41,525 nucleotides of DNA, from NCBI GenBank assembly GCA_964367315.1, contig CAYIWV010000002.1, positions 1-41,525 on the forward strand, in the 5' to 3' direction. Position 1 is the first letter of the stretch, and each line of letters opens with the position of its first letter. A model generated the notes under the pieces. It was not told the DNA's origin, searched no databases, and worked only from the letters and a program-made list of their open reading frames with translations. Origin of the DNA: an uncultured Candidatus Saccharibacteria bacterium. GTDB lineage: Bacteria; Patescibacteriota; Minisyncoccia; Phycocordibacterales; SBAW01. A program made the position numbers and the translations under genes. Positions 2,049 to 38,159 of the stretch are shown here, piece by piece.

Positions 2049-2086
2049 GGGGCTTTTTTGTGTTACAACAATGGCCCTTGCCAGAT

Positions 2087-7652: not shown

Positions 7653-7726
7653 AAGAGGTCGCGGGCGGGGGTTGCTATTGCAAAATTATTGAGGTATTTT
7701 GTCAATGCTTCATACGGAAGAAACCT

Positions 7727-7754
7727 ATTCAAATCAAGGGAGTTTTAGTATAGT
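7727..7754 (+). promoter_or_regulatory. Possible promoter with a very short leader for the gene at 7763
   Basis: ATTCAA, a 16-nt spacer, then TATAGT (7749-7754). The ATG lies only 8 nt after the -10 element. A similar GTATAGTA..GC-N6-8-ATG arrangement recurs at 41413-41429. Confidence 0.3.
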
Positions 7755-7762
7755 AAGCAACC

Positions 7763-17683: not shown

Positions 17684-20025
17684 GCGAAGGAAAATGGATA
17701 GTCTTTGCAAGTGTGCTTTTTTCGGTGCTCGGAGCCGCAGCACTTTTCCCATTCTTATTTTTAGGAGAGATATTTTCCAACACGGATGCGGTGACGTATT
17801 ATTACCCGGCTTTTCATTTTTATAGCGAAGCACTCCACGGGGGAGAGTCGTTTTTATGGAACCCGTATCTCTTCTCTGGGTTTCCAATGTATCTCAGCCA
17901 ATCGGCGGGTTTTCTTGACCCTCTCAATATTTTTCTTTTTCGCATCTTCGATGCGTTTGATGCGTATCATGTGAGGCTCTTCATCGGGTTTTTCTTGACC
18001 ATGCTCTTTTCGTGCCTTGCCGCCCGCTCGCTCGGACTCTCACGCCACGCATCGCTTGTCGTCGGGCCAGCGTATCTTGTTGCCTTTAATTGGTGGTATA
18101 TCTCGAACCCAGTCATCGTGAACTCGCTATTTCTACTCCCATTTTTATTATGGGTGGGAATGTCCATGGCAGGTGGCGTTCATCGATGGCGTTTTACCGT
18201 ACTTGCGGGGTTGGGTATTGGCTGGTCACTCCTTGCTGGATACGCCCAGCTCACAATTTACACAATGTCGGCATGGGGGGTGTTTATACTTGCAGAGGTG
18301 TGGTGGGTGAGCCGCCGTTCGCCGCGCGAGCGTATCTCCACGATTCTGCTGCTCGGCGGCGCGGCGATTATTGGCGCACTTGTTGCACTTCCGCAACTGT
18401 TGCCAGCGCTCGATTTTACGCCCCTTACGGGGCGTGCGGAAGGTCTTGCATACGGGCTTTCGACCTTTAAGGTTATTAACCCAGGCGATCTTATCCTCTT
18501 TATCTTTCCGGATTACCTCTACTTTCCCTATCTCTCAGGCGGGCGCCGGCCGCTTTATGTTGGAGTACTTCTGTTCATTTTGGCGGTCATGGCAGCGGTC
18601 TCGCTTATACGCAGCATCCGCGCCGCACATATGGATAAGATGGAGCGGCGCATGAGTGTTGTCGTCGGCCTATTAGCATTTTGTTTTGTTGCGGCCCTTG
18701 CATATTCACCGGTGTATTATGTGCTCCAACATTTGCCGGTATTTTCATACTTCAGGTTCCCATATCGATGGATGTACGTGGGAGCGTGGTTTTTGGCGCT
18801 TCTTGGCGCATGGGGGATCGACCGTCTACGAGATGCGGTACCCGGACGATGGATGAACATAATTGCCGCCACTTTCACGGGTGTCGCCGCACTCTTTACC
18901 GCAGCGGCCACCTTACTCACATTTGCCGGTCAGACGTTTTGGAATGCTGTGGGTGAGTGGATATTCATCCTTTTGCGCGTGACTATGATTGGTTCCTCCG
19001 GCCTTACAAAGGACCCGGAGCATTACCACGACGCGATAGTGCGCGGTATCAACGCGTGGCAAGAAGCACTCTCACTCACCGAAATCTCTTTTGTAGTACC
19101 GTTCGCGCTTCTGGTAGGTGCGGTGGCGCTTGTGTGGCAGTATGTTGGGGGAAAAATTTCACGTGAACTTTTTTCCCGTACCGCAGTTGGCCTCTCGCTC
19201 GCGACTTTTATTCTTGTGTTCGCGGTGCAGTGGAGCACGTCGCTTCCACGCACAATCGCAGGGTCTCATGCCGAGCTCCTCTCGTTTATTCCCTTGGAAG
19301 AGCGCGCACTGTATCGGACCTTTCCTTTCATGCTTGGGGAGAGTCTTGAGCGTTATATACCGCCGCAATATTCATTAGATGAGGGAGAATTGCGCGCTGT
19401 GACGATGATGCAGTTTTATTCAGGTTGGTCAAATACCAACACGTTCGCCAAAATTGCGAGTGCGGACGGTTACGACCCATTCGTCCCCGTCCGCATGCGG
19501 GCGCTGCTTGAAGAGGCGGGGAGCACCCATAGCGGCGAAGACGTGACGAGGAGCCTTTCGAATGATGAAAAAATCGCTCGGCTTTATTCAAAACTCCCCT
19601 TGCTTGGCGAGATGTCGGTCAAGTACATCCTCTCGGGGATGCCGCTCTCGCATCGCAACCTTACCCTGGTGCGCACGGAACCCATCCCTCCTTATGGCGC
19701 CGAATTGTATATATATGAAAATACCCATGCCTTGCCGCGTGTACGCTTTATTTCGCCCGGTGCGGCTTCGGACACCCTTACGCTTATAGAGGTTAAAAGC
19801 GGCTCTTTTACAATCGAAACCCGTACGGTGCGCTCGCGCGCGCTCCTTGTTGCGGAGAGTAATCTCCCCGGCTGGGAGGCGACTATCGACGGAGCGCCGT
19901 CTGCAATACCTAAGGGGCTCTTTATCGAGCTTGAGGTACCGGCGGGGAAGCATACACTTGTACTTACTTACGTGGGAATGCGCGGCGAATTGCACGCGCT
20001 TAGGATGCTTGGTATCGTCCAGTGA
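17680..20025 (+). CDS. YfhO-family GT-C membrane glycosyltransferase, paralogue 1
   Basis: ATGA overlap. Large polytopic protein of 781 aa. TDAVTYYY follows the first TM helix. C-terminal signature LPGWEATIDGAPSAI...LEVPAGKHTLVLTY. Confidence 0.8.
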   Translation: MSEGKWIVFASVLFSVLGAAALFPFLFLGEIFSNTDAVTYYYPAFHFYSEALHGGESFLWNPYLFSGFPMYLSQSAGFLDPLNIFLFRIFDAFDAYHVRLFIGFFLTMLFSCLAARSLGLSRHASLVVGPAYLVAFNWWYISNPVIVNSLFLLPFLLWVGMSMAGGVHRWRFTVLAGLGIGWSLLAGYAQLTIYTMSAWGVFILAEVWWVSRRSPRERISTILLLGGAAIIGALVALPQLLPALDFTPLTGRAEGLAYGLSTFKVINPGDLILFIFPDYLYFPYLSGGRRPLYVGVLLFILAVMAAVSLIRSIRAAHMDKMERRMSVVVGLLAFCFVAALAYSPVYYVLQHLPVFSYFRFPYRWMYVGAWFLALLGAWGIDRLRDAVPGRWMNIIAATFTGVAALFTAAATLLTFAGQTFWNAVGEWIFILLRVTMIGSSGLTKDPEHYHDAIVRGINAWQEALSLTEISFVVPFALLVGAVALVWQYVGGKISRELFSRTAVGLSLATFILVFAVQWSTSLPRTIAGSHAELLSFIPLEERALYRTFPFMLGESLERYIPPQYSLDEGELRAVTMMQFYSGWSNTNTFAKIASADGYDPFVPVRMRALLEEAGSTHSGEDVTRSLSNDEKIARLYSKLPLLGEMSVKYILSGMPLSHRNLTLVRTEPIPPYGAELYIYENTHALPRVRFISPGAASDTLTLIEVKSGSFTIETRTVRSRALLVAESNLPGWEATIDGAPSAIPKGLFIELEVPAGKHTLVLTYVGMRGELHALRMLGIVQ

Positions 20026-21398
20026 TTATGAAAACTATTTTTATCACCGTATACGACGGCGACATCGAAAAAAATATTCTCCAATCTGACGTGCTCCGCA
20101 CGCTCAGGAGCGCCAATCTTAAGATTGTGCTTCTCGTCAAAAACGGCATCGTGCATAATTACCGGCATTACGCGGACGAACGCGTAGTCGTCGAGGAACT
20201 GCCGCCGGCGCTGTGTTTTTCAGAGAAGTTTTTTTATTGGATAGGATGGAATATACTCCCAACCCGCTCCGGATATCTCCGCCGCCGCCAGTCTTATAAA
20301 CTCCACCGCAGTTATGTACGTCTCATGTTGGGAGATTTTCTTGGCTGGTGCGGGAGGTCGCGCACATTTCGCCAGGCACTACGCGCAGTGTATGCCGTGA
20401 TCCCTGATGGGTATGGCGCGGATCTATTCGAGCGCTACAAACCCGACCTATTGTATGCACCGAGCATGTTCTCACCCGAGGACGGCCGACTCTTGCGTAT
20501 GGCAAAACGCAAAGGCGTGGGGACAGTGACTGCGTCAAAAAGCTGGGACGTACTTACCAACAAAGCATTTACGCGCATACGGGCCGACACCATCATTGTA
20601 CAAAATCCTCTTATTCGCGATGTGGCAATTACTTTAGGTGATTACGATCCCACACAGGTGGAGGTGGTAGGTTTCGTACAGTTTGATTTTACAGTCAGAC
20701 AGGATCTTATTATGCCGCGTGAGGAATATTTAAATAAGATTGGCGCAGATCCTGGGCGGAAGTTAATTCTCTACTCGACTTCTGGAGATTGGAAAAATCC
20801 GTACGACGATGAAGTGGTAGAGGGCATCCACGACGCCATTGTGACAGGGGTAATCCCCCATGCTCAAATTCTTGCTCGGTTTCATCCAAAATACTCGAGC
20901 AAGATCGAACGGCTCGATCTTCCTCATCTCATAACGCATCGGCCCTGCGAAGGAGAGGAGCAGGTTGAGTCCTATGACAGCTCGGCATCGCGTGTATACC
21001 CTTTTACCTTTCGAGAGGATGATTATGTGGATCTTGCAAACGCGCTCTACCATAGCGATGTCACCATTAATACCATGTCCTCGATAACACTTGACGCGAT
21101 CGCCTATGATAAGCCAGTCGTTCTTATTTGCCACGATGGGCTTGATCGGTCTTTGCCGTACCTGGAGTCGTTACGCCGCATGTATGACGAAGACCACTAT
21201 CGTGTCATTATGGAAAGTGCGTGCGTCGCCGCCTCGTACTCAATGAAGGATACTGTGGAGGCAATTCGAGCATATCTTGCCGACCCTTCGCGCGATGCGG
21301 AGGGACGTGCCTTCATCCGCGAACAGGTGCTGTATAAACTTGATGGAAAGTCAGGCGAACGCATCGCGCAGACTCTCCTGCGCCGCTTGAACCTCTAA
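20022..21398 (+). CDS. GT-B-fold protein of uncertain family (TagB/TagF CDP-glycerol glycerophosphotransferase-like or capsule-polymerase-like)
   Basis: GTG at 20022 overlaps the upstream stop (ATG at 20028 is the alternative). The C-terminal block LYHSDVTINTMSSITLDAIAYDKPVVLI resembles the TagF-type (a)DxLITDYSSvxFD..kPi motif. The call is tentative. Confidence 0.45.
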   Translation: MIMKTIFITVYDGDIEKNILQSDVLRTLRSANLKIVLLVKNGIVHNYRHYADERVVVEELPPALCFSEKFFYWIGWNILPTRSGYLRRRQSYKLHRSYVRLMLGDFLGWCGRSRTFRQALRAVYAVIPDGYGADLFERYKPDLLYAPSMFSPEDGRLLRMAKRKGVGTVTASKSWDVLTNKAFTRIRADTIIVQNPLIRDVAITLGDYDPTQVEVVGFVQFDFTVRQDLIMPREEYLNKIGADPGRKLILYSTSGDWKNPYDDEVVEGIHDAIVTGVIPHAQILARFHPKYSSKIERLDLPHLITHRPCEGEEQVESYDSSASRVYPFTFREDDYVDLANALYHSDVTINTMSSITLDAIAYDKPVVLICHDGLDRSLPYLESLRRMYDEDHYRVIMESACVAASYSMKDTVEAIRAYLADPSRDAEGRAFIREQVLYKLDGKSGERIAQTLLRRLNL

Positions 21399-21443
21399 AC
21401 GCCGTGAGCATACGTTCATTGCTCTTGGCGTACTTCTGTGCGA

Positions 21444-21460
21444 TACTCCGGACCGGAGTA
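21444..21460. promoter_or_regulatory. 17-bp palindrome (hairpin or operator-like) upstream of the first radical SAM gene
   Basis: TACTCCGG-A-CCGGAGTA at 21444-21460, followed by the -10-like TATAAC (21463-21468) and the AAGGAG SD (21475-21480) before the ATG at 21487. Confidence 0.3.
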
Positions 21461-21486
21461 CCTATAACGTAGCCAAGGAGACGAGC

Positions 21487-23019
21487 ATGAAAGTCCTCTT
21501 GTTGTATCCCAACATACGGCACGAGAGCCTCGTGCCGCCTTCGATCGCCTTGCTCTCCCGTATTCTCAAAAACGAGGGACACACGGTAGATATTTTCGAC
21601 TCGACCGACTACGACATCGACCTTGGAATGATCGACGCCGACAAGGTCAAGAAAGAAAACTTGTTGGTCATCCCGACCGAGAGTATCGAGCGCAGCAGTA
21701 AGGGCGATGTGTTTGCGGGCTTTCGCAAAAAGGTTCAGACGTTTAGCCCGGATCTGATTGCGGTAACCGCAACGGAAAGCACCTTTCTGCTCGCCACGGC
21801 GCTTTTGCGGGCGATTCGCGACCGCTCCCACCCCGTTCCGACGGTCTTGGGCGGCGTCTTTGCCACTTTTGCACCGGCTCTGGCTTTGCGCTACCCTGAG
21901 ATCGACATGTGCGTCGTCGGCGAGGGGGAGCGAGCATTGCCGGCACTTTGCCGGGCGCTCGAGCGCGGGGAAGACCACACCACCGTACGAGGGCTCTGGG
22001 TAAAGGGAGGGGATGGGGAGGTTATAAAAAACCCACCCGCCCTTCCGGTCGACATCAACGAGAATCCGTCCGACTTGGACATCTCGCTCTTTGACGACCA
22101 TCGGCTCTACCGCCCTATGGGCGGTAAGGTGTACCGGATGCTCTCGATCGAGACGCATCGCGGGTGCCCATATACGTGCGGGTTCTGCAACTCGCCTGGG
22201 CAAAACGAGTTGTTCGGCGCGAAACACTTTTTCCGCAAGCGAAAGCCGGAGAAGGTGCGGGAGGAAATTCTGCACTACATCGAGAAGTATAAGATTGAGT
22301 ACGCTTTCTTCTGGGCGGATACGTTCTTTGCGTATTCGCCCGCGGAGTTCGATGCTTTCATCGAGATGTACAAGGACATCCGGCTGCCGTTTTGGTGCCA
22401 GACACGGCCCGAGACGGTGATGATCAAAAAGGACCGGATCAAGCAGCTCCGCGACATCGGACTACATCGGATCTCGTTCGGACTCGAGCATGGCAACGAG
22501 AAGTTCCGGCGGGATGTGGTAGGCCGCAACATGTCCAACCAGCTCCTTATCGATGCCTTCGTATTGGGGGCGGACTCGGGCCTTCCGTTCTCCGTCAACA
22601 ACATCATCGGCTTCCCCGGCGAGACGCGCGACTTGGTCTTTGACACGATTGAGCTCAACCGTCATACGAAGGCTCAGTCGATGTCGTGCAGCATCTTCAT
22701 GCCCTACCAGGGCACCGCGCTGCATCGGCTTGCGGTCAGCAAAGGCTATATTGCCGACGACACCATCTGTCCCTCCAATAACGACGAGGCGATTATGAAT
22801 ATGTCGTCTCTATCCAAGGGGGAGATTATGGGGCTCCGGAGCACGTTCCCGCTTTATGTCCGGTTCCCCAAGGATCGGTGGCCTGAGATCCGCCTGGCGG
22901 AGTCTCCGACGGAGGAGGGCAAAAAAAGGCTCGCCGACCTCCGGCAGGAGTTCCAGCGCACCTACATGCCTGGTGCTCCCGAACTCTACCAATCGCCCGG
23001 CGTACACGCGGCCGGGTAA
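21487..23019 (+). CDS. Cobalamin-binding-domain (class B type) radical SAM enzyme 1
   Basis: N-terminal B12-type Rossmann domain (KVLLLYPN...LIAVTATES...VLGGVFAT) and radical SAM cluster motif ETHRGCPYTCGFCNS (CxxxCxxC). AAGGAG SD upstream. Confidence 0.85.
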   Translation: MKVLLLYPNIRHESLVPPSIALLSRILKNEGHTVDIFDSTDYDIDLGMIDADKVKKENLLVIPTESIERSSKGDVFAGFRKKVQTFSPDLIAVTATESTFLLATALLRAIRDRSHPVPTVLGGVFATFAPALALRYPEIDMCVVGEGERALPALCRALERGEDHTTVRGLWVKGGDGEVIKNPPALPVDINENPSDLDISLFDDHRLYRPMGGKVYRMLSIETHRGCPYTCGFCNSPGQNELFGAKHFFRKRKPEKVREEILHYIEKYKIEYAFFWADTFFAYSPAEFDAFIEMYKDIRLPFWCQTRPETVMIKKDRIKQLRDIGLHRISFGLEHGNEKFRRDVVGRNMSNQLLIDAFVLGADSGLPFSVNNIIGFPGETRDLVFDTIELNRHTKAQSMSCSIFMPYQGTALHRLAVSKGYIADDTICPSNNDEAIMNMSSLSKGEIMGLRSTFPLYVRFPKDRWPEIRLAESPTEEGKKRLADLRQEFQRTYMPGAPELYQSPGVHAAG

Positions 23020-23031
23020 GATAAGGCGTAG

Positions 23032-23060
23032 GGGTCCCCGTTCGCGGGGGCCCTTTTTCT
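23032..23060 (+). terminator. Intrinsic terminator
   Basis: GGGTCCCCG (23032-23040), TTCG loop, CGGGGGCCC (23045-23053), then TTTTTCTTT. This is a 9-bp stem with one G-U pair, 13 nt after the stop. Confidence 0.7.
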
Positions 23061-23077
23061 TTGCTATAGTACTCACG

Positions 23078-23803
23078 ATGAGAGGGGCTATCGCACGGTT
23101 TGCGGCGACATATCTGGAAAATAGAGCAAAACAAATAATACAAAGCCACGAAATGTGGCGTTTTGTCGGTCCCTATCTCGAGCGGTCAGTATCTACCGGC
23201 TGCAATTATGTCGACTACTTGGCGCTCTACAACCACATACGGCAGTATAAGCCGCGCCACGTGCTCGAGCTTGGGACGGGTGTCTCCACCACCATCATCG
23301 CTTATGCGCTCAAGGAAAACGGAGGCGGGGAAGTGGTGTCGATGGAAGATCATCAGTACTACCTCGAGGAAACGATGAAGATATTTCCTAACGAGCTTCG
23401 CGACATGGTCACGTTCCATTTGAGCCCCGCGGTTGAAAAAACCAAGGACTTTTTCCGGGGGAGTGGCTATAAGGACATCCCAGTGCGCGACTACGAGTTC
23501 GTATTTGTCGATGGCCCCAATCTCCTGGTAAGCACCGATCGCGGTGTGGAGGCTGAGTTTGGTTTTAATTTTGATTTTATTGAGGCGGTGCAGATGTCCA
23601 ACAAACCCGTCTCCGGCCTTATCGACACGCGGACGACGACTTGCTTCGTTTACAGTAATATCCTCGGCGATAAGTTCCGCTACAACTATCTCCAGCGCCA
23701 GGGAGTGATGATGCCTTGTACCAAAAAAGACCTCCTCAACGCCAAACAAATAACTGCTCGCGCGATGAAACGGCGCGCGTTTAAGCGGACATTTAAGACC
23801 TAG
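23078..23803 (+). CDS. Putative class I SAM-dependent methyltransferase (241 aa)
   Basis: ATG at 23078; the ORF-track start at 22856 lies inside the rSAM gene and the terminator. Motif I-like HVLELGTGVSTTIIAYAL, then an acidic residue in VVSMEDHQ, and FVFVDGP. Confidence 0.6.
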   Translation: MRGAIARFAATYLENRAKQIIQSHEMWRFVGPYLERSVSTGCNYVDYLALYNHIRQYKPRHVLELGTGVSTTIIAYALKENGGGEVVSMEDHQYYLEETMKIFPNELRDMVTFHLSPAVEKTKDFFRGSGYKDIPVRDYEFVFVDGPNLLVSTDRGVEAEFGFNFDFIEAVQMSNKPVSGLIDTRTTTCFVYSNILGDKFRYNYLQRQGVMMPCTKKDLLNAKQITARAMKRRAFKRTFKT

Positions 23804-23877
23804 TCGTTGCTAGTAACCTTTTTGCGTGGTACAAGGTTATTGTAATAAGCCGCGCCAGGCGGCGTTTCCTATTGCGC

Positions 23878-24306
23878 ATGATTACCAAAATCCATTACAC
23901 CAAGGGCGCGCGGTTTGATTTCGGCACGCATATCAACGAATTTTTGGTTCCCCGCGAAAAAGCCCTCTCGTCCGAGACATTTTTGGTCATTATCCGTCCC
24001 GGCAAGGCAACGCATCTCCATATGCATCCGGATATGGAGCAGATCTTTTATGTCATCAAAGGCCGGGGCTCACTCTTTACTTGCACAAATGCGCGTGTGA
24101 AGCTCCGCAAGGTCCACGAGATAAAGTCGGGCGATGTAGTGCATATCCCGCTTAAGACGTGGCATACGGTCTCGTGCGCGGGCAAAAGGCCGCTCGAATA
24201 TTTGTGCGTCGACGCGTTCCCTAAAGGACATTTGCACGGCGAGAAGACCGCGCTCGCGCATGCAAGAAATGTTGTCGCTGCAGAAAAGAAGAAAAAAAAC
24301 CGATGA
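23878..24306 (+). CDS. Cupin-domain protein
   Basis: ATG at 23878. Cupin motifs GKATHLHMHPDMEQIFYVIKGRG and GDVVHIPLKTWH. Confidence 0.75.
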   Translation: MITKIHYTKGARFDFGTHINEFLVPREKALSSETFLVIIRPGKATHLHMHPDMEQIFYVIKGRGSLFTCTNARVKLRKVHEIKSGDVVHIPLKTWHTVSCAGKRPLEYLCVDAFPKGHLHGEKTALAHARNVVAAEKKKKNR

Positions 24307-25490
24307 CAAAACCCCGATATATCCTACTCAATTTTCTTCATGGCAATGGTCCGTATCTGCGGACTCTTGAGCTTGCTCTTGCTGTTAATGACGAGCTCGA
24401 AGCACGCGGTAAGGAGCGCATGCATATCATCGTGCCGCTGATCTACGGCAGCCACCAACAGGCGATCATGGAAGAAAATTTTAAAGGAACGATTGAAAAG
24501 AGTCCAAATGAAATTCTTCTTAGTGAAGAGCTCGGGCGTCTTCTTAAGCCGATTTTCTACACCGGCGAGAAAAGTTATGAAGAATCGCTTCGTTATTTTG
24601 CAAAAGAATCTCGCGCAACAGAACGGGTATTGCGCGAATGTATCGAGTGCGGGTTTAGTGCCCTGACCTTTGGCGGAGAAACCCGCATGATTTCAAAAAA
24701 AGATATTGCCATGGAAATCAATCGGTGCCCGCAGGTTTCTACCGGCATATCACCGTCGTATTACACCGGGTTCGATTACATATCAAAAGTGCTCGAACAT
24801 ACCCTCAAGGAGGATTCATTGCATGGGTTTGACCAAGAACTTCTTAAGACCTGTATCCCTTTATATAAGGAAATTGAGAGGAATCAGACACTCCATTTTA
24901 TCGCGGAACCCTCAATTTTTTCATATTTGGGAGAGCGGCAGAAAAAATATCCAACCGAAATAACCACGCCACCTAATACTAACCAACCACACTTTTTCCA
25001 TCACTCGCCAGACCGCAAAGATGTTGAGGAGGGAGTCTATGTAACGGTGACCGGCATCCCTGGCCTTGAACACCTCTTTGAGGATGTACAGAAGATGGGC
25101 CTGCGGGTGTATACTCATCGGCCGGAACTTATCCCGGGGAGTTTGCTGGCATCACCCCATATTGTTGCGGACGAGAAAATAAAATTTCACTTTGCACGGA
25201 GCGGCTGGGGGTCGCTGTGGCTTTCGTTTTTGACCGACACACCTTTTGTCACGCGCCCGTATCATCCCCATGACGACGTGGAGATCTATTTTAACAACAA
25301 ATGCATCGAAAACCTTGGCATCGGGATGGTGTTCGACAAAAACTCCACTGTTGAGGACTTGTTCGATTATGCGGTGCGTTACAAAAAATCCTCTGACGCG
25401 CTTAAAGAAAAACTCATCGCAAAATACGGCACGCTCGATGGCGTACATTACACGGCACAAAAAATCGTCGACCACTTTGTCGCGCAATAA
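24303..25490 (+). CDS. Orphan GT-B-like protein (MurG/PseG/GT28 C-terminal-like); either a glycosyltransferase or a nucleotide-sugar hydrolase
   Basis: ATGA overlap with the cupin gene. The C-terminal block FHFARSGWGSLWLSFLTDTPFVTRPY...NNKCIENLGIGMVF resembles the GT28/GT1 donor-binding half. The N-terminal half is not recognisable. GC content is markedly lower than in neighbouring genes. Confidence 0.45.
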   Translation: MTKPRYILLNFLHGNGPYLRTLELALAVNDELEARGKERMHIIVPLIYGSHQQAIMEENFKGTIEKSPNEILLSEELGRLLKPIFYTGEKSYEESLRYFAKESRATERVLRECIECGFSALTFGGETRMISKKDIAMEINRCPQVSTGISPSYYTGFDYISKVLEHTLKEDSLHGFDQELLKTCIPLYKEIERNQTLHFIAEPSIFSYLGERQKKYPTEITTPPNTNQPHFFHHSPDRKDVEEGVYVTVTGIPGLEHLFEDVQKMGLRVYTHRPELIPGSLLASPHIVADEKIKFHFARSGWGSLWLSFLTDTPFVTRPYHPHDDVEIYFNNKCIENLGIGMVFDKNSTVEDLFDYAVRYKKSSDALKEKLIAKYGTLDGVHYTAQKIVDHFVAQ

Positions 25491-25498
25491 TACAGCTA

Positions 25499-25527
25499 TT
25501 GACTAGGTTGTGTCTTGGTGTTATTTT
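25499..25527 (+). promoter_or_regulatory. Possible promoter for the NeuB-like gene
   Basis: TTGACT (25499-25504), a 17-nt spacer, then TATTTT (25522-25527). GAAAGGA SD precedes the ATG at 25568. Confidence 0.35.
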
Positions 25528-25567
25528 CTCTTATAGACGCTGAACCAACTTCAGGAAAGGATGTTCC

Positions 25568-26530
25568 ATGACGATGCTTATCGTCGAAGTATGTCAAAAC
25601 CACAACGGCTCGCGAGAGACCTTGCGAGAGATGATCAGGGTTGCCGCGAAGAGCGGTGCCGATATTGTCAAAATGCAGTCGATCTGGGCTGCCGACCTCA
25701 CAAACCGTCCATGGTTTGAGGAGGGCGAGGTGCATGAGCGCACTGGGATTCGCACGGCAGTCCGTCGACCCTACGCTGTCGAGTTTGAGCGACTTTCCAA
25801 GCTCGACCTCACACTCGACGACCACCAGTTCTTCAACGAGACGTGTCTGGAGAGTGGCGTCATTCCGATGACAACCATCTTTGCGCGGCATCGGATCGAA
25901 GAAGTGGCGGGGGGGTATGTGCCGGGGAGATGGACCAAGGTGGCAAGCTATGATTGTGCGAGCTACCCGATGCTCATCGAGCTGGCCGAGCACTACGACA
26001 ACTTCGTCATCTCGACGGGGGCGACGTATGATGAGGAGGTAGGGCAAACCGCCGACCTCATGAAGAGGCTCGGCAAGCGCTTCGTCTTCCTCCATTGCGT
26101 GACGAGTTACCCCAATGCGCTCCAGGAGTGCCATCTCTCCCGCATGCAGTGGCTCCGGCAGTTTACCCCCGAGGTGGGGTGGTCGGACCACACCAAAGTG
26201 AGCGAGAACGGCACCGTTGCTGCCAAGGCTGCGCTTGCGCTTGGAGCAAGCTATATCGAGCGGCACTTCACCGTCCTTGAGGAAGACAGGACCAAGGACG
26301 GCCCCGTCTCAATCACACCAGCAATGCTTGAAGATCTCTCGGCGTTCCGGGACTACTCCCCTGAGAAGCAGGCCCAAGTGCTCGACGCGACGTATCCGTT
26401 CTGGCGCGTCACGATCGGCAAGCCGGAGCGGGAGATGGGACACATCGAGCTGCTTAACCGCGACTACTATCGAGGGCGCTTCGCAAGCCCCAAAGAGGGC
26501 GGCGGTTGGCGTTACAATTGGGAGCGATAG
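25568..26530 (+). CDS. NeuB-family (N-acylneuraminate / nonulosonate synthase-like) TIM-barrel enzyme without a recognisable SAF domain
   Basis: LIVEVCQNHNGSRETLREMIRVAAKSGADIVKMQS matches the NeuB N-terminal signature (iAEiG.NHnG....A..lI..A...GAd.vKfQ). GWSDHT matches the G.SDHT motif. Confidence 0.75.
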   Translation: MTMLIVEVCQNHNGSRETLREMIRVAAKSGADIVKMQSIWAADLTNRPWFEEGEVHERTGIRTAVRRPYAVEFERLSKLDLTLDDHQFFNETCLESGVIPMTTIFARHRIEEVAGGYVPGRWTKVASYDCASYPMLIELAEHYDNFVISTGATYDEEVGQTADLMKRLGKRFVFLHCVTSYPNALQECHLSRMQWLRQFTPEVGWSDHTKVSENGTVAAKAALALGASYIERHFTVLEEDRTKDGPVSITPAMLEDLSAFRDYSPEKQAQVLDATYPFWRVTIGKPEREMGHIELLNRDYYRGRFASPKEGGGWRYNWER

Positions 26531-26540
26531 ACGCACCATG

Positions 26541-26571
26541 CGGCCTGGGAAACTTCCCGGGCCGCTTTTTT
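26541..26571 (+). terminator. Intrinsic terminator
   Basis: CGGCCTGGGAA..TTCCCGGGCCG hairpin at 26541-26564 (about 10 bp with one G-U pair) followed by CTTTTTT. Confidence 0.6.
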
Positions 26572-26588
26572 GTTGTAGGATGTACCTC

Positions 26589-27314
26589 ATGCATGTCCTT
26601 GCACTCATTCCTGCCCGCGGCGGTTCTAAGGGTGTCCCGCGGAAAAACATAAAGCCATTCTGCGGCAAACCGCTCATCGCGTGGACGATCGAAGAGGCGA
26701 AAAAATCTAAGCATATAACCCGCGTTATCGTCTCAACCGACGATGAGGAGATTGCGGGTATTGCTCGGCGCTATGGCGCTGAGGTGCCGTTTATGCGCCC
26801 CGCAGAGATTGCGGGGGACACTACACTGGATCAACCGGTTTTTGAGCATGCGTTGCGGTGGCTCAAAGAGCACGAAGGATATATACCGGATATTGTTGTG
26901 CATTTACGCGCAAATAGTCCGCTCCGGATTGTGAGCGACATCGACCAGGGTATTGAACTCATGCAGAGTAACCCGCATGCCGATTCGGTGCGAGCAGTAG
27001 TGAAGGCGTCGCTCCATCCGCTGAAGACCTATACGTTGCGCGAAGACCATACACTTGCGCCATTTATACCCGAGGAGGTGTATGGCATCAAAGAACCATA
27101 CAATCTCCCATGGCAGTCGCTCCCCACCGCGTATGCGACAGGAGGATATCTCTCGGTTATACGGCCGGAGACCATATTGGAGAAGCGCTCTATTTGCGGT
27201 GATGTAATGCTTGGGTTTGAAGTAGATGCGGCACATGTGGTCGATATCGACACGCCGCTGCAATTCGCGGTAGCTGAAACTCTTATGCAGAAACGGCTTG
27301 ACGGAACACTATAA
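26589..27314 (+). CDS. Acylneuraminate cytidylyltransferase (NeuA / CMP-sugar synthetase)-like, paralogue 1
   Basis: ATG at 26589 with AGGA 8 nt upstream (ATG at 26580 also in frame). Signature ALIPARGGSKGVPRKNIKPFCGKPLIAWTI. Confidence 0.85.
   Translation: MHVLALIPARGGSKGVPRKNIKPFCGKPLIAWTIEEAKKSKHITRVIVSTDDEEIAGIARRYGAEVPFMRPAEIAGDTTLDQPVFEHALRWLKEHEGYIPDIVVHLRANSPLRIVSDIDQGIELMQSNPHADSVRAVVKASLHPLKTYTLREDHTLAPFIPEEVYGIKEPYNLPWQSLPTAYATGGYLSVIRPETILEKRSICGDVMLGFEVDAAHVVDIDTPLQFAVAETLMQKRLDGTL
26727..26787 (+). repeat. 61-nt patch that is 59/61 identical to 27539-27599 (within the tandem NeuA-like paralogues)
   Basis: Direct comparison by eye. The only differences are gagatTgcGggt versus gagatCgcAggt. 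Confidence 0.85.
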
Positions 27315-27382
27315 CACTCTCTTTTCTTAGGGCAAAAATATGATATGCTCCGAACGGATCCTAGTATCACAAGGAGGAGCGC

Positions 27383-28144
27383 ATGGCTGCGCCGTACTGT
27401 CATGAGGGCCTCGCGCTTATACCAGCTCGAGGGGGTTCGAAAGGGATTCCGCGGAAGAACATAAAGCTGTTCTGCGGCAAGCCCTTGATCGCCTGGACGA
27501 TCGAGGAAGCCAAAAAGTCGAAACATATTACCCGTATCATCGTCTCAACCGACGATGAGGAGATCGCAGGTATTGCTCGGCGCTATGGCGCTGAGGTGCT
27601 CCGACGACCTTCCGAAATTTCGGGGGATTCTACGCCGGATTTGCCGGTATTCGAACATGCTATTCGCACGCTTGAGGCAGATAACTATCTCCCTGAGTTT
27701 GTGGTGCATCTTCGGGCAACTGGGCCGCTGCGAGTCGCCCTTGATATCAACCGGGGCATCGAGCTCTTGCTCGAGAACCCGCAGGCCGATTCAGTACGAG
27801 CGGTGATGAAGGCGCCGCTCCACCCGCTCAAGACCTATGCGCTTGGGGAAGGGGGAGTGTTGGGGCCGTTTGTCCCGGCAGGGGTTTTTTCTATCGAGGA
27901 GCCCTTCAATCTGCCTTGGCAGAATTTGCCGCGGGCATACACGACCGGCGGATATCTCTCGGTCATACGGCCCGCGACTATCCTTGCCGGGTCTATGAGC
28001 GGAAGCACGATGCTCGGGTTTGAAGTCGACCCCGCTCATGTGGTAGACATCGATACCCAAGCGCAATTCTTGCTTGCCGAGATGCTCATGCGCGAGCGTC
28101 TTAGTGAAACACTTGAGCCTGGGGGAGCATCCCGCTCCTTTTAG
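27383..28144 (+). CDS. Acylneuraminate cytidylyltransferase (NeuA)-like, paralogue 2
   Basis: AAGGAGGAG SD 5 nt upstream. ALIPARGGSKGIPRKNIKLFCGKPLIAWTIEEAKKSKHITRIIVSTDDEEIAGIARRYGAEV is nearly identical to paralogue 1. Confidence 0.85.
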   Translation: MAAPYCHEGLALIPARGGSKGIPRKNIKLFCGKPLIAWTIEEAKKSKHITRIIVSTDDEEIAGIARRYGAEVLRRPSEISGDSTPDLPVFEHAIRTLEADNYLPEFVVHLRATGPLRVALDINRGIELLLENPQADSVRAVMKAPLHPLKTYALGEGGVLGPFVPAGVFSIEEPFNLPWQNLPRAYTTGGYLSVIRPATILAGSMSGSTMLGFEVDPAHVVDIDTQAQFLLAEMLMRERLSETLEPGGASRSF

Positions 28145-28193
28145 GCGGAAATGCGGTATACTCCGCATCGGAGTTCTTTAACAGGAGGAGCGC

Positions 28194-29705
28194 ATGAAGG
28201 CGCCAAAAGTCTGCTTTATTTCGACGCCCTCGCCGTTCCTCTTGGACGAGCGCGGGTTTCCCTTCTTGGGGGTGCTTAAGTTGCCGCCGATCTTGGCGCG
28301 CAATGACATCGCCTCCGAGGTCATGGACCTCTCGGGGCTCACCAACTACCTCGAGGTGCTGGCTGCTCATGCGGCCCGCACCGAGGCGACGCACTTCGGG
28401 ATCACGGCGACGACGCCGCAGTTCCCTGCGGCGGTCAAAATCGCCAAGAAGCTCCGCGAAGTGCGTCCCGACGCGTGTCTCATTCTTGGTGGCACGCATT
28501 CCACGCTTACGGTTGCGGGTACCAAGTACGAGAAGGCCCAGGGGCGCGACGGGAGAGCCCACCGCGCCTACCGGCAGCTCGAAGAGCATTTCGACGTCAT
28601 CGTAAGCGGCGACGGGGAGCGGACTATCCTCCTCGCGCTCAAGCCCGATGCGCCGAAGCTCATCGACGCGGACGACCGCAAGTCCCCGCTGTTCCTTCGG
28701 GATAGCGATGTGGAGCTCGAGTCGGTATTCCCGGCGCGAGAGCTCATCGACCTCGGGAGCTACCGGTACTTCATCGACGGGGAGAAGGCCACGTCGATCA
28801 TTGCCCAACTGGGGTGCCCCTATAAGTGCGGGTTTTGCGCGGGGCGCGCGTCGCCCATGTTGCGCAACATCCGCACCCGAAGCGCCGAGAGCATCATCGA
28901 GGAGATGATGCTCATCTATCGGCAGTGGGGCATCCGCGGCATCATGTTCTACGACGACGAGCTCAATGTCTCGCCGGACATGATTACGCTCATGGAGCGG
29001 ATCGCGAAAGCGGGCCGTGACCATGGCATCGAGTGGAAGCTGCGCGGGTTCATCAAATCCGAGCGGTTTACCAGGGAGCAGGCCGAGGCCATGCTCGAGG
29101 CGGGGTTCCGCCAGATCCTCATCGGGTTCGAGTCCGGCTCGCCGCGGATTTTGGAGAACATCCAAAAGATCGCGACGCAGGAGGACAACACCCGCTGTAT
29201 GGATATCGCGCGCGACACGGGGCTTAAAGTCAAAGCCCTTATGTCGCTCGGGCATCCGGGCGAGTCCGAGGGTACCATCGAGGACACCCGCAAGTGGCTC
29301 GTGGACGTGCGGCCGTCGGATTTCGACGAGACGGTCATCACGCCCTACCCGGGCTCCCCGTACTTCGACCAAGCTATCCCGGTCGAGGGGAGCGGCTCCA
29401 AGTACGTCTACACGTGCAAAAATGGGGACCGCCTCTTCCAAGAGGAGGTCAACTACACGCTCGATGCGGACTACTACAAAGGCGACCCGGAGGACGGCTA
29501 TATCAGCCACGTCTGGACGCCGGACTTAAGCCAGGATGACCTGGTGCGGCTGCGCAACGAGTTGGAGACGAACGTCAGGCGCATGCTCGATATCCCCTTC
29601 AATCCGAGCCGAGCCTCGCAATCCTACGAGCACTCCATGGGGCAGACGCAACTGCCCGATTGGATACTCCGCAGGAGCAATCCTGCACCCCTCGCCGCCC
29701 CGTAG
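28194..29705 (+). CDS. Cobalamin-binding-domain (class B type) radical SAM enzyme 2
   Basis: AGGAGGAG SD upstream. N-terminal B12-type domain (VCFISTPSP...HFGITATTPQF...ILGGTHST) and cluster motif QLGCPYKCGFCAG. Confidence 0.85.
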   Translation: MKAPKVCFISTPSPFLLDERGFPFLGVLKLPPILARNDIASEVMDLSGLTNYLEVLAAHAARTEATHFGITATTPQFPAAVKIAKKLREVRPDACLILGGTHSTLTVAGTKYEKAQGRDGRAHRAYRQLEEHFDVIVSGDGERTILLALKPDAPKLIDADDRKSPLFLRDSDVELESVFPARELIDLGSYRYFIDGEKATSIIAQLGCPYKCGFCAGRASPMLRNIRTRSAESIIEEMMLIYRQWGIRGIMFYDDELNVSPDMITLMERIAKAGRDHGIEWKLRGFIKSERFTREQAEAMLEAGFRQILIGFESGSPRILENIQKIATQEDNTRCMDIARDTGLKVKALMSLGHPGESEGTIEDTRKWLVDVRPSDFDETVITPYPGSPYFDQAIPVEGSGSKYVYTCKNGDRLFQEEVNYTLDADYYKGDPEDGYISHVWTPDLSQDDLVRLRNELETNVRRMLDIPFNPSRASQSYEHSMGQTQLPDWILRRSNPAPLAAP

Positions 29706-29723
29706 CGGCGAGGTTTTCTTTTT
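29691..29723 (+). terminator. Intrinsic terminator overlapping the stop codon
   Basis: CTCGCCGC (29691-29698), a 6-nt loop, GCGGCGAG (29705-29712), then GTTTTCTTTTT. Confidence 0.65.
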
Positions 29724-36516: not shown

Positions 36517-36550
36517 AAATCGGCCCCGTAAAACGGGGCCGATTTTATTT
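36517..36550. terminator. Bidirectional intrinsic terminator between convergent genes
   Basis: AAAT-CGGCCCCG (36521-36528), TAAAA loop, CGGGGCCG-ATTT (36534-36545), flanked by an A-run and a T-run. It overlaps the stop of the minus-strand gene. Confidence 0.7.
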
Positions 36551-38089: not shown

Positions 38090-38159
38090 GTGCGCCCATG
38101 ATAGCAGATAGGCGGCAGTCGCGGTAACTGGCAAGAGAGGGTAGTATTATGGACATTGC

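Follow-up and report, generated by a model that had tools for sequence, protein, structure and literature searches.

A putative ulosonic-acid island abutting a radical SAM gene in a cell-surface glycan locus of an uncultured Candidatus Saccharibacteria bacterium

In the 41,525 nucleotides of a Candidatus Saccharibacteria contig analyzed here (the window), which are almost entirely one cell-surface glycan locus, two radical SAM (rSAM) genes bracket a NeuB-like synthase and two cytidylyltransferases. This raises the question of whether the 8.2 kb from the first rSAM gene to the second encode one pathway. The original prediction proposed that they may, with both rSAM enzymes helping to make a CMP-activated ulosonic acid of a non-canonical kind. 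The eight open reading frames on which it was built were all recovered in place on the plus strand (Table 1), and the products of the last four are identical in an independent gene call on the ENA contig ERZ1292629.

Table 1. Features of the glycan locus, with window coordinates and the evidence for each assignment.
Feature	Coordinates	Strand	Evidence
Exostosin_GT47-like glycosyltransferase	14050..15222	+	Pfam E 9e-10
TagB/BFO_1060-like GT-B protein	20022..21398	+	weak Glyphos_transf and NF046086 matches
rSAM-1, class-B radical SAM enzyme	21487..23019	+	Pfam B12-binding and Radical_SAM, CPYTCGFC
Hairpin after rSAM-1	23030..23055	+	11-bp stem, 8 GC pairs, then T run
Methyltransf_24 class-I SAM methyltransferase	23078..23803	+	Pfam 28.7 bits, cut-off 26.3
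Small metal-type cupin	23878..24306	+	Cupin_2 E 2.3e-13
GT1-like GT-B protein	24303..25490	+	AlphaFold2 model
SAF-less NeuB-family synthase	25568..26530	+	Pfam NeuB 149.7 bits, SAF absent
Hairpin after NeuB-like gene	26540..26565	+	11-bp stem, 9 GC pairs, then TTTTTT
CT1, CTP_transf_3 cytidylyltransferase (NeuA/PseF-like)	26589..27314	+	Pfam 89.1 bits
CT2, tandem duplicate of CT1	27383..28144	+	CTP_transf_3
rSAM-2, class-B-architecture radical SAM enzyme	28194..29705	+	Radical_SAM, CPYKCGFC
Hairpin overlapping rSAM-2 end	29690..29713	+	9-bp stem, 8 GC pairs, then T run

The synthase scores under the NeuB and PseI equivalog cut-offs. Its residues aligned to NmNeuB E25, K53, Q55, K129, S132, S154, Y186, S213, H215, E234, H236, and D247 are all kept, without variation across 20 members of the family; with the metal and PEP ligands thus conserved, the objection foreseen in the original prediction, that they might have been lost, falls away. 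The same protein carries the substitutions E134D, N184T, and G133Y and, where SAF would be, an invariant new C-terminal motif (NRDYYRGRFA...NWE), and could on these grounds use a different acceptor or even perform a different chemistry. The reaction we favor is condensation of PEP with an aldose, which would yield a 2-keto-3-deoxy acid. To our knowledge the product is known for no member of this SAF-less family, whose relatives occur in at least 185 species genomes, in groups as far apart as CPR, Bacteroidota, and Prochlorococcus; the protein is also encoded on groundwater contigs of the Hainich 0.1-um filter fraction. As predicted, aminotransferase and N-acetyltransferase domains were found in none of the 37 open reading frames scanned across the window, nor was a NeuC-type epimerase found in it. 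With the NeuB ligands kept and SAF absent, a non-canonical CMP-activated ulosonic acid is plausible.

Neighbors were counted in the 63 genome loci, each 8 kb or longer, that a SAF-less NeuB profile retrieved. CTP_transf_3 is encoded in 59 of these, a TagB-like protein in 28, rSAM-1 in 5, and rSAM-2 in 2. In 39 loci the gene immediately upstream of the NeuB-like one encodes the GT-B protein, and 13 further loci have in this position a 351-aa protein that is weakly, below cut-off, GT28_C/PseG-like. The GT-B protein is the most constant neighbor of the SAF-less NeuB, and these two together with a cytidylyltransferase form the core that recurs across these genomes. The island in the window differs from most of these loci in lacking a CBS-NDP-sugar dehydrogenase (present in 55/63), as well as a 2-hydroxyacid dehydrogenase (33/63).

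Pfam, NCBIfam, and PDB sequence searches with the GT-B protein, a profile search included, returned no match. In the PDB, its AlphaFold2 model (pLDDT 93.4) resembles glycosyltransferases of family GT1 (E 4e-10, TM 0.5-0.6), the top 50 Foldseek matches all being UDP- and TDP-glycosyltransferases of this family, and the 395-aa protein therefore has the GT-B fold originally proposed for it. A part in the supply or handling of a sugar precursor is our guess. It could be a precursor-supplying hydrolase or an ordinary glycosyltransferase. A comparison of its profile with that of a weakly GT28_C/PseG-like neighbor gave only 63% probability over 49 columns. The cupin has only generic PDB matches, such as the C-terminal domain of oxalate decarboxylase; the same cupin-GT-B pair is also found in loci L141 (cupin 60% identical) and L142, and the cupin is a partner of the GT-B protein within this sub-lineage. 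In closer relatives, a CBS-NDP-sugar dehydrogenase takes the position of the cupin.

The functional unit starts one gene before the stretch originally delimited and spans 20022-28144, the additional gene being that for the TagB/BFO_1060-like transferase. This protein matches Glyphos_transf weakly (E 3.8e-4) and NF046086, the BFO_1060 family, at E 5.7e-6 along almost the entire profile; for a 28% identical homologue in L060, the E-values against these two families are 3e-15 and 7.6e-24. Tanf_01245, a genetically proven transferase of a Pse derivative, has BFO_1060 as its orthologue (PMC5420450). The TagB-like protein thus bears a distant resemblance to the family that contains the proven Pse/Leg transferase of T. 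forsythia, and would be the transferase for the CMP-activated acid. In L088-L090 a copy 72-73% identical lies immediately upstream of rSAM-1.

Both rSAM proteins contain the cysteine motifs ascribed to them, and they share only 21% identity and therefore belong to unrelated subfamilies. For rSAM-1, both B12-binding (53.6 bits, cut-off 32.1) and Radical_SAM are above the Pfam cut-offs, while no NCBIfam model reached its cut-off and no characterized rSAM family fitted. The family counts 1152 clusters at 50% identity (E<=1e-30), and among 28 related loci 5 kb or longer, CTP_transf_3 and/or NeuB were encoded in 20 and Methyltransf_24 in 10, so that the link of rSAM-1 to NeuA and NeuB is upheld. 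Relatives 80-88% identical share the order rSAM-1, Methyltransf_24, X, GT-B, NeuB-like, cytidylyltransferase. A methyltransferase copy 76-79% identical directly follows rSAM-1 in L086, L087, L089, L090, and L092, and members of its family also stand beside distant rSAM-1 relatives (L096, L097, L100, L101); the enzyme often pairs with rSAM-1 and is its conserved partner, and rSAM-1 would be a tailoring enzyme of the island. It may be something other than a methylase, as the best PDB sequence match of both rSAM-1 and rSAM-2 is AprD4, a diol dehydratase that does not methylate.

The same link was also claimed for rSAM-2, and here it did not hold. The protein has a Radical_SAM score of 92 bits with B12-binding just below the cut-off (28.8 against 32.1), and its AlphaFold2 model matches TsrM, AprD4, MgmA, TokK, and OxsB. 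Its orthologues (59-88% identity), of which every named one is from CPR, were found in nine other contexts, and within +/-10 kb, the span that these counts cover and beyond which those genomes may have NulO genes, neither NeuB nor CTP_transf_3 was found in seven, NulO genes being nearby in just two; in 6/9 the gene lies directly beside an Exostosin_GT47-like gene. The CPR origin of the named homologues and the Hainich contigs that bear the synthase point to a groundwater CPR bacterium, probably of the Parcubacteria, as the source of the window. L135-L140 are syntenic, with GT4 genes, a methyltransferase, an epimerase, GT47, and rSAM-2, and NulO genes were not found nearby. The GT47-like gene of the window is 56-63% identical to those abutting rSAM-2 orthologues in L135 and L136, and GT47-family genes likewise abut them in L137-L140. 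In the window this gene is 13 kb from rSAM-2, whereas elsewhere it is usually its immediate neighbor. The closest relative, L134 (88% identity), carries another cassette, of NeuC type (TagB-like gene, Epimerase_2, cytidylyltransferase, 370-aa NeuB), in the equivalent position between its YfhO gene and rSAM-2, so the bracketing marks where a variable island meets a backbone gene. In the lineage of the window, the island and the upstream GT4, Wzx, and YfhO genes sit between the GT47 gene and rSAM-2, and only because of this separation would rSAM-2 abut the island. Gene order thus places rSAM-2 outside the island, in the backbone of a glycan locus conserved in Parcubacteria.

A part for rSAM-2 in ulosonic-acid chemistry retains some plausibility, for it directly follows a NulO gene in the window and in L134, as does a 51% identical paralogue in L086 and L092. 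The two predicted NeuA-like cytidylyltransferases, of which CT1 scores 163 bits against the PseF model (cut-off 205.7), are 72% identical and share a 191-nt direct repeat at 26597 and 27409; CT2 is a recent tandem duplicate. The RBS-start junction AGGAGGAGCGCATG occurs at 27372 and again at 28183, hence a cytidylyltransferase and rSAM-2 adjoined before the duplication, which likewise leaves room for such a part. Terminator-like sites in the region number 22, with 10.7 expected, and the three at predicted terminator positions (Table 1) are strong hairpins with the longest and most G+C-rich stems of all 22. G+C content is 0.47-0.51 over 23-25 kb, against about 0.58-0.61 in most of the window.

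Of the proposed bracketing of a NeuB pathway by two rSAM enzymes, the part concerning rSAM-1 therefore stands, and the 8.2-kb stretch is, in our moderately confident judgment, a composite of the ulosonic-acid island and rSAM-2 as locus backbone rather than a single pathway. Domains and folds, the NeuB catalytic residues, the neighborhood counts, and the duplication footprint are shown directly. The pathway that we infer, in its enzymatic activities, order of steps, cobalamin use, and sugar alike, would begin with the GT1-like GT-B protein, here with the small cupin, supplying or handling a sugar precursor. The SAF-less synthase would then join PEP to the aldose, giving an ulosonic acid of unspecified chain length and substitution, the CTP_transf_3 enzyme, duplicated here, would activate it with CMP, and the TagB/BFO_1060-like GT-B transferase would place it on the glycan. 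rSAM-1 and the Methyltransf_24 enzyme would form an accessory pair that modifies the acid, either free or as its CMP ester. Fom3 acts on a cytidylylated substrate, and because of this precedent radical C-methylation followed by O-methylation would be the likeliest chemistry. The island is plausibly a swappable unit of the glycan locus, with a CMP-activated keto-sugar acid as its putative product.

Nearly the entire window is one plus-strand surface-glycan locus according to a Pfam scan, and an island of genes that appears to be devoted to a CMP-activated ulosonic acid lies within it (see the table). The eight plus-strand open reading frames from rSAM-1 to rSAM-2 were recovered exactly where the original prediction had placed them, and an independent gene call on an ENA contig that encodes an identical NeuB-like protein, from a Hainich groundwater well (0.1-µm filter fraction), agrees on the last four products. 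The window itself, a complete contig of 41,525 bp, stems from this filter fraction as well. The motifs CPYTCGFC (rSAM-1) and CPYKCGFC (rSAM-2) are both found in the sequence, and the three predicted terminators correspond to strong terminator-like hairpins. The enzymes reported as missing are indeed missing: none of the 37 window ORFs scanned has an aminotransferase or N-acetyltransferase domain, nor does any contain an Epimerase_2 (NeuC-type), DegT or Hexapep/GNAT domain. The backbone of the locus does contain SDR epimerase/dehydratase genes, none of which reaches the cut-off of LegB or PseB. The rest of the glycan locus encodes an HHH_3-PKD protein, six GT4 glycosyltransferases, SDR epimerases and dehydratases, a GT47-like glycosyltransferase, a Wzx-type flippase, three YfhO-like membrane proteins, and GT2, PMT_2 and GtrA proteins.

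Features of the glycan locus (window coordinates)
Feature	Position	Strand	Basis
Syntenic backbone	924-16343		Gene order shared with other Parcubacteria
SDR-Glyco_trans_4_4 fusion	2060-3559		
Short NDP-sugar dehydrogenase homologue	7763-8803		
GT47-like gene	14050-15222		
YfhO-like protein 1	17680-20025		Pfam YfhO, C-terminal end
TagB-like transferase candidate	20022-21398	+	Pfam Glyphos_transf, below cut-off
rSAM-1	21487-23019	+	Pfam B12-binding and Radical_SAM
Terminator-like hairpin 1	23030-23055		
Methyltransferase	23078-23803	+	Pfam Methyltransf_24
Cupin	23878-24306	+	Pfam Cupin_2
GT-B protein, 395 aa	24303-25490	+	No sequence family; AlphaFold2 fold
NeuB-like synthase, 320 aa	25568-26530	+	Pfam NeuB, no SAF
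Terminator-like hairpin 2	26540-26565		
Cytidylyltransferase CT1	26589-27314	+	Pfam CTP_transf_3
Cytidylyltransferase CT2	27383-28144	+	Pfam CTP_transf_3
Direct repeat	26597-26787 and 27409-27599		5' parts of CT1 and CT2
Repeated RBS-start junction	27372-27393 and 28183-28204		Before CT2 and before rSAM-2
rSAM-2	28194-29705	+	Pfam Radical_SAM; B12-binding below cut-off
Terminator-like hairpin 3	29690-29713		
YfhO-like protein 2	29751-32255		Pfam YfhO, C-terminal end
YfhO-like protein 3	32252-34351		Pfam YfhO, C-terminal end
FAD amine-oxidase-like oxidoreductase	36545-38134	-	
Overlapping ORF, 433 aa	36557-37858	+	No Pfam match

The base composition of the locus is uneven. G+C falls to 0.47-0.51 at 17001-18000, 20001-21000, 23001-25000 and 33001-34000, against about 0.58-0.61 across most of the window, and these stretches match YfhO-like genes, the TagB-like gene and three successive island genes (Methyltransf_24, cupin and GT-B), a pattern that fits mosaic acquisition. 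A mobile element was considered and rejected, as the window has no tRNA genes and no long flanking direct repeats, only an internal cytidylyltransferase duplication. Two of the three large polytopic YfhO-like proteins (699-834 aa) flank the island; the Pfam YfhO model matches their C-terminal ends only, and they could be glycan polymerases or transferases working outside the membrane. The FAD oxidoreductase (529 aa) is the sole convincing minus-strand gene product of the window, and the plus-strand ORF overlapping its gene is probably spurious.

The NeuB-like protein matches PF03102 with 149.7 bits (cut-off 22.1) over residues 22-257 and, as had been claimed from the sequence, lacks a SAF domain (no PF08666 match); its C-terminal ~60 residues carry an unrelated invariant motif, NRDYYRGRFA...NWE, in the place of SAF. 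The SAF (antifreeze-like) domain of NeuB provides R314 to the active site of the partner subunit. The roles of the NmNeuB residues reportedly go back to the work of Gunawan et al. from 2005. They are also summarized in passages of PMC8208679. In a phmmer alignment to 1XUU/2WQP, the NmNeuB residues E25, K53, Q55, K129, S132, S154, Y186, S213, H215, E234, H236 and D247 correspond to E7, K35, Q37, K124, S127, S149, Y181, S206, H208, E231, H233 and D244, respectively, and the equivalents of the metal ligands (NmNeuB H215 and H236) and of the PEP-binding and catalytic residues are all invariant among 20 family members. The metal and PEP ligands are retained, and therefore the objection that the protein might lack them, which the original prediction had allowed for, fails. 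Three substitutions relative to NmNeuB, each equally invariant in the 20 members, are E134 to D129, N184 to T179 and G133 to Y128. Against the characterized equivalogs the protein remains below cut-off, with 139.0 bits for NeuB (TIGR03569, cut-off 399.65) and 110.3 bits for PseI (TIGR03586, cut-off 340.25). According to passages of PMC8208679, 30% of 13,941 NulO synthase sequences have no SAF domain, cluster in environmental organisms and often have D at E134, a description that the window protein fits, including E134D. Those passages assign to the SAF-less clades neither a product nor partner genes, nor a connection with radical SAM enzymes; the gene module and the C-terminal motif were recognized as conserved in the present analysis.

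A scan with one genome per species found the SAF-less subfamily in at least 185 genomes, from CPR, Bacteroidota, Prochlorococcus, Chloroflexota, Nitrospina, Scalindua and a Woesearchaeote. Neighbors were counted in 63 loci of at least 8 kb. A CTP_transf_3 cytidylyltransferase is present in 59 of the 63, a CBS-fused NDP-sugar dehydrogenase, which among named families comes nearest to UDP-ManNAc dehydrogenase (with a sub-cut-off score), in 55, and a D-2-hydroxyacid dehydrogenase in 33. A GT-B-like protein is encoded in 39 loci, usually immediately upstream, and is replaced in 13 others by a 351-aa protein with a weak, sub-cut-off likeness to GT28_C/PseG. Homologues of the TagB-like gene occur in 28 loci, rSAM-1 homologues in five and an rSAM-2-like gene in two. 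Many of the comparison loci, which stem from other genomes and metagenomes and are designated by L numbers, encode two NeuB-family synthases in adjacent or nearby genes (L014, L018, L024, L025, L028, L141); there the SAF-less NeuB has the GT-B partner, and the other NeuB has a NeuC-type Epimerase_2 and its own cytidylyltransferase. Because a second, NeuC-linked NeuB is often found in the same locus, the SAF-less enzyme probably does not just stand in for canonical NeuB.

This raises the question whether the module makes a nine-carbon nonulosonic sugar at all, or a different PEP-derived keto acid that is then CMP-activated and transferred, one possibility being an ulosaric (dicarboxylic) or shorter-chain acid derived from a uronic-acid-type or oxidized aldose. 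Such a product would suit the two frequent dehydrogenases, the coexistence with a NeuC-associated NeuB, the altered sugar-contacting positions (E134D, N184T, G133Y) and the replacement of the SAF arginine by the NRDYYRGRFA tail. However, the dehydrogenase and the GT-B protein could instead make and add the acceptor sugar, as ManNAcA is the NulO acceptor in Tannerella forsythia (PMC5420450), the window island contains neither dehydrogenase, and the cytidylyltransferases score best against PseF. We therefore consider a different keto acid to be rather unlikely, although it is the strongest of the alternatives.

For the 395-aa GT-B protein, no sequence match was found in Pfam, NCBIfam or the PDB, even with a profile of 22 sequences. 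Its AlphaFold2 model, built from 54 homologues (pLDDT 93.4, pTM 0.92), has a clear GT-B fold with two Rossmann domains, and a Foldseek search against the PDB gave 326 matches at E<=0.001, the top 50 of which are all GT1-type (UDP-/TDP-glycosyltransferases) with TM-scores of 0.5-0.6, so that the GT-B-like character proposed for this orphan protein is upheld. Homology to NeuC or PseG was tried and rejected, as there is no sequence match and the top structural matches are to GT1 enzymes, not to NeuC; an hhalign comparison with the weakly GT28_C/PseG-like neighbor of the Bacteroidota version reached 63% probability over only 49 C-terminal columns. By analogy with the position of NeuC and PseG genes, the GT-B protein may nonetheless be a precursor-supplying hydrolase. 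In the PDB, the cupin has only generic metal-cupin matches. A cupin-GT-B pair also precedes the SAF-less NeuB in L141 (cupin 60%, GT-B 63% identical) and L142 (GT-B 61%), and looks like an alternative to the pair of CBS-fused dehydrogenase and GT-B protein found elsewhere.

As the island lacks two components that are frequent in related loci, the CBS-fused and the 2-hydroxyacid dehydrogenase, it might be a decaying or incomplete remnant without a product. The low G+C at 23-25 kb and the divergence of the GT-B protein, which is only 43% identical to its counterpart in L086 where its neighbors are 71-85% identical, would agree with this; the latter difference points to replacement of a segment. 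Yet none of the eight ORFs is broken or truncated, RBS-like sequences and terminators are in place, the catalytic residues are preserved, and the arrangement of cupin, GT-B and NeuB-like genes is conserved in the two other genomes, L141 and L142, and therefore represents a maintained variant, not decay. A remnant thus seems very improbable.

The gene at 20022-21398 directly upstream of rSAM-1 bears a distant resemblance to the TagB and BFO_1060 families: it scores below cut-off for both PF04464 (Glyphos_transf; 20.0 bits, cut-off 22.1) and NF046086 (BFO_1060; 25.7 bits, cut-off 200), the latter match being weak and nearly full-length. Its homologue in L060 passes the Pfam cut-off (56.5 bits) and stays below that of NF046086 (84.5 bits). 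Tanf_01245, to which BFO_1060 is orthologous, has been proven genetically to transfer a pseudaminic acid derivative in T. forsythia (PMC5420450). The window protein and its homologues share with these TagB-like GT-B transferases of pseudaminic and legionaminic acid derivatives the family matches and the adjacent NulO-type biosynthesis genes, but the match of the window protein, a candidate transferase, is far weaker than the family requires. In view of these matches and of the homologues beside SAF-less NeuB genes, the unit should therefore start at 20022.

The two cytidylyltransferases, predicted to be duplicates, are 72% identical. Both are clear members of CTP_transf_3 (89.1 and 88.8 bits for CT1 and CT2, cut-off 22.6), and their best equivalog is PseF with 163 and 142.7 bits, below the cut-off of 205.7. 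The 5' parts of the genes contain a 191-nt direct repeat of 83% identity, with the copies 812 nt apart, and the ribosome-binding site and start junction AGGAGGAGCGCATG occurs before CT2 and again before rSAM-2. Direct repeat and repeated junction together are the trace left when a unit of approximately 811 nt was recently duplicated in tandem. The occurrence of the junction before both CT2 and rSAM-2 indicates that a cytidylyltransferase gene already abutted rSAM-2 at the time of the duplication, and the N-terminal extension of CT2 seems to derive from this old junction.

The two radical SAM enzymes are not duplicates of each other, as they are only 21% identical. In rSAM-1, the Radical_SAM domain scores 74.9 bits (cut-off 29.5) and the N-terminal B12-binding domain 53.6 bits (cut-off 32.1). 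The protein exceeds the cut-off of no characterized class-B equivalog (BchE, HpnJ, HpnR, PhpK, AprD4, Mmp10/MgmA, BzaD, TsrM-type and others); the best NCBIfam score is for BchE (110.6 bits, cut-off 481), followed by HpnJ and TIGR04013. A metagenome scan yielded 48 relatives. Those with 80-88% identity keep the order rSAM-1, Methyltransf_24, CBS-fused NDP-sugar dehydrogenase (in the position of the window's cupin), GT-B, NeuB-like and cytidylyltransferase, some with a TagB-like gene directly upstream. More distant relatives (43-50% identity) are found in other cassettes with a cytidylyltransferase, one consisting of an rSAM-1-like enzyme, a 286-aa NeuB, PhyH, cytidylyltransferase and DegT, and another of a SPASM rSAM, cytidylyltransferase, AP_endonuc_2, an rSAM-1-like enzyme, SDR, Methyltransf_24 and 2-hydroxyacid dehydrogenase. 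Among the rSAM-1 loci of at least 5 kb, 20 of 28 contain CTP_transf_3 and/or NeuB and 10 contain Methyltransf_24, in a family that comprises 1152 clusters of 50% identity at E<=1e-30. No relative of the Methyltransf_24 protein was found in the PDB. A second, unrelated type of rSAM (Radical_SAM plus SPASM, 330-389 aa) also occurs beside CTP_transf_3 genes (L096 at 7413-8405, L100, L102, L131, and L142 at 6046-7215), and in L142 both it and a GFO_IDH_MocA oxidoreductase are encoded between the genes of the GT-B protein and the cytidylyltransferase. The rSAM-1 family may not be alone in bringing radical chemistry close to cytidylyltransferases.

Most characterized class-B enzymes are methylases. 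With Fom3, GenK, TokK, TsrM and MgmA, rSAM-1 shares the N-terminal B12-binding domain and the CxxxCxxC core, and like Fom3, whose substrate is a cytidylylated hydroxyethylphosphonate, it may act on a cytidylylated compound, as it is encoded beside a cytidylyltransferase. Its putative substrate would differ from theirs in being a sugar acid, not a phosphonate, aminoglycoside, carbapenem or peptide. Alternatively, rSAM-1 could be a non-methylating enzyme that catalyzes an AprD4-type dehydration or deoxygenation, an epimerization or a rearrangement, leaving Methyltransf_24 responsible for the only methylation. AprD4 (PDB 6FD2), a radical SAM 1,2-diol dehydratase of apramycin biosynthesis that acts on a sugar and has the same type of B12-binding domain without using cobalamin, is the best PDB sequence match of both window rSAMs, and for rSAM-1 (E 2.7e-12) it ranks ahead of MgmA (9CCB) and TokK. 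The highest sub-cut-off scores are likewise to BchE and HpnJ, which are non-methylating class-B enzymes, HpnJ working on a sugar moiety. The neighbors of rSAM-1 in distant relatives, an SDR and an AP_endonuc_2 TIM barrel of the sugar-epimerase type, are what a dehydratase-reductase pair like AprD4/AprD3 would look like. The identity of the window rSAMs to AprD4 is only about 20%, their AprD4-family scores (78 and 53.6 bits) are far below the cut-off of 500, and no AprD3-type reductase is adjacent to them in the window. Against a non-methylating rSAM-1 speak the lack of an SDR in the window island, the score of its B12-binding domain well above the Pfam cut-off, and its alignment with the cobalamin domain of TokK. 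We consider a non-methylating rSAM-1 unlikely and retain a putative tailoring methylase as the working assignment.

The second radical SAM enzyme has a different history. In rSAM-2, Radical_SAM scores 92 bits (cut-off 29.5) and the B12-binding domain, with 28.8 bits, falls just below its cut-off of 32.1; again no characterized class-B equivalog cut-off is exceeded, the best score being 110.3 bits for HpnJ (cut-off 577.6), and for both rSAMs the remaining models are still further from theirs. An AF2 model (pLDDT 91) aligns over its length about equally well with TsrM, AprD4, MgmA, TokK, OxsB and CysS in Foldseek, with the best TM-score for AprD4 (0.63/0.69), and with ranks this close the fold does not tell a methylase and an AprD4-like enzyme apart. 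Across Parcubacteria the orthologues share 59-88% identity, and every named close homologue is from Patescibacteria/Parcubacteria. We compared nine other rSAM-2 contexts (L003, L005 and L134-L140) and searched for NulO genes within 10 kb. In seven of them (L135-L140 and L005) neither NeuB nor CTP_transf_3 is present within this distance. The rSAM-2 gene directly follows a GT47-like gene in L135, L136, L137, L139 and L140 and directly precedes one in L138, and in all six loci the pair is embedded among GT4, methyltransferase and epimerase genes in synteny with the upstream half of the window. In L134, which has the closest orthologue (88% identity), the slot between YfhO and rSAM-2 is occupied by genes for a TagB-like protein, Epimerase_2, a cytidylyltransferase and a NeuB of 370 aa with 26% identity to the window protein. 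From the synteny beside GT47 and the different cassette in L134 it follows that rSAM-2 is a backbone gene and the neighboring NulO cassette is exchangeable.

The original prediction had assigned both class-B rSAMs to one NeuB pathway, each modifying a CMP-ulosonic acid, and several observations agree with it. In the window, rSAM-2 starts 50 bp past CT2 on the same strand, an adjacency that, according to the duplicated junction, predates the duplication; the orthologue in L134 directly follows the NeuB gene; in L086 and L092 a class-B rSAM with 51% identity directly follows a cytidylyltransferase; and in L003 NeuB, NeuC and DegT genes are located 4-10 kb upstream of the rSAM-2 orthologue. Nevertheless, most rSAM-2 contexts lack NeuB and CTP_transf_3 within 10 kb, six of the nine abut a GT47-like gene within the GT4-rich syntenic backbone, the gene is rare among SAF-less NeuB loci, and the rSAM-2 family is far more uniform than the variable NulO cassettes beside it. 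A single pathway with two rSAMs is thus decidedly unlikely, and the picture is largely an accident of island placement; for rSAM-1, the frequency of CTP_transf_3 and/or NeuB in its loci means that the proposed link with a sugar pathway therefore survives.

The distinction between island and backbone can be seen directly in the gene order. The long backbone in the first part of the window is common to the Parcubacteria loci L135, L136, L137, L139 and L140, in the order HHH_3-PKD(-LTD) ComEA-like protein, epimerase, several GT4, methyltransferase, GT47-like protein and class-B rSAM, preceded in the relatives by a gene for a TraG/TrwB-type coupling protein, and it looks like a lineage-wide surface-glycan locus. 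One of its genes encodes an SDR epimerase/dehydratase domain fused to only the N-terminal half of a GT4 domain (Glyco_trans_4_4; 481-499 aa), a fusion that is kept across Parcubacteria loci (L005 at 752-2200, L137 at 1-1165, L140 at 1296-2741). Another encodes a homologue of NDP-sugar dehydrogenases that, with about 290-346 aa, is short and has the N-terminal and central domains but no C-terminal UDP-binding domain; because the short form is conserved in several genomes (L135 at 4573-6365, in two tandem copies, and L140 at 6261-7127), it is probably not a pseudogene.

The likely logic of the island is precursor handling, followed by PEP condensation, CMP activation and transfer. In such a pathway, the GT-B protein and the cupin would supply or process an aldose, which the NeuB-like enzyme would condense with PEP; the cytidylyltransferases would make the CMP ester of the resulting acid, and the TagB-like protein would transfer it to the glycan. 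The acid may be tailored by rSAM-1 and Methyltransf_24, possibly as the CMP ester by analogy with Fom3, and rSAM-2 would cooperate with the GT47-like enzyme in another part of glycan synthesis. Compared to the NeuC/NeuB/NeuA route of sialic acid with its CMP-NulO transferase, the island has a TIM barrel of the PEP-condensing NeuB family in which the metal and PEP ligands are identical, an adjacent CTP_transf_3, a candidate transferase and an upstream GT-B-fold protein in the NeuC/PseG position. It differs in the tail that replaces SAF, in the three substituted positions, in a GT1-like upstream protein that is neither Epimerase_2 (NeuC) nor a recognizable PseG, in the absence of an aminotransferase, and in scores that reach none of the equivalog cut-offs for NeuB, PseI and PseF; the genes that commonly accompany the SAF-less module, a CBS-fused dehydrogenase or cupin and a 2-hydroxyacid dehydrogenase, are a further difference. 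Our literature search found no paper on nonulosonic acids in connection with radical SAM enzymes or cobalamin, and none on NulO sugars in Patescibacteria/CPR.

The ulosonic acids, among them sialic, pseudaminic and legionaminic acid and Kdo, act as key determinants of the surface, and we know of no characterized route to them that includes a radical SAM step. The most novel results are the recurrent linkage of rSAM-1 with cytidylyltransferases and the widespread SAF-less NeuB module. Folds and domains, the conserved active site of the NeuB-like protein, the neighborhood counts, the division into island and backbone and the duplication are shown here; the enzyme activities and the rSAM chemistry we infer from them. 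In a joint reading, the rSAM-1 family would be the first cobalamin-dependent rSAMs to tailor CMP-ulosonic acids, for example with a C-methyl branch. The module of SAF-less NeuB, GT1-like GT-B protein, CBS-fused NDP-sugar dehydrogenase or cupin, cytidylyltransferase, 2-hydroxyacid dehydrogenase and TagB-like transferase would make a previously undescribed surface keto-sugar acid displayed on CPR, Bacteroidota, marine cyanobacteria and others, and rSAM-2 with its GT47-like neighbor would be a near-universal second rSAM step in the synthesis of Parcubacteria surface glycans. That all these parts hold at once is a tentative proposal, and we would call it unlikely as a whole. For genome mining, the two rSAMs are a caution that adjacency at the edge of a variable island may mimic pathway membership. 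The SAF-less subfamily combines fixed partner genes with a distribution over at least 185 species, including at least one isolate genome, Pseudotenacibaculum sp. MALMAid0570 (L060), so that the sugar could be identified by direct chemistry. The recurrence of a class-B rSAM family beside cytidylyltransferases points to radical tailoring at the level of the CMP-sugar. To our knowledge, Parcubacteria are unable to make cobalamin themselves. The almost universal presence of a second class-B rSAM in their glycan loci bears both on how these ultra-small, host-dependent bacteria build their surface and on whether they depend on scavenged cobalamin.
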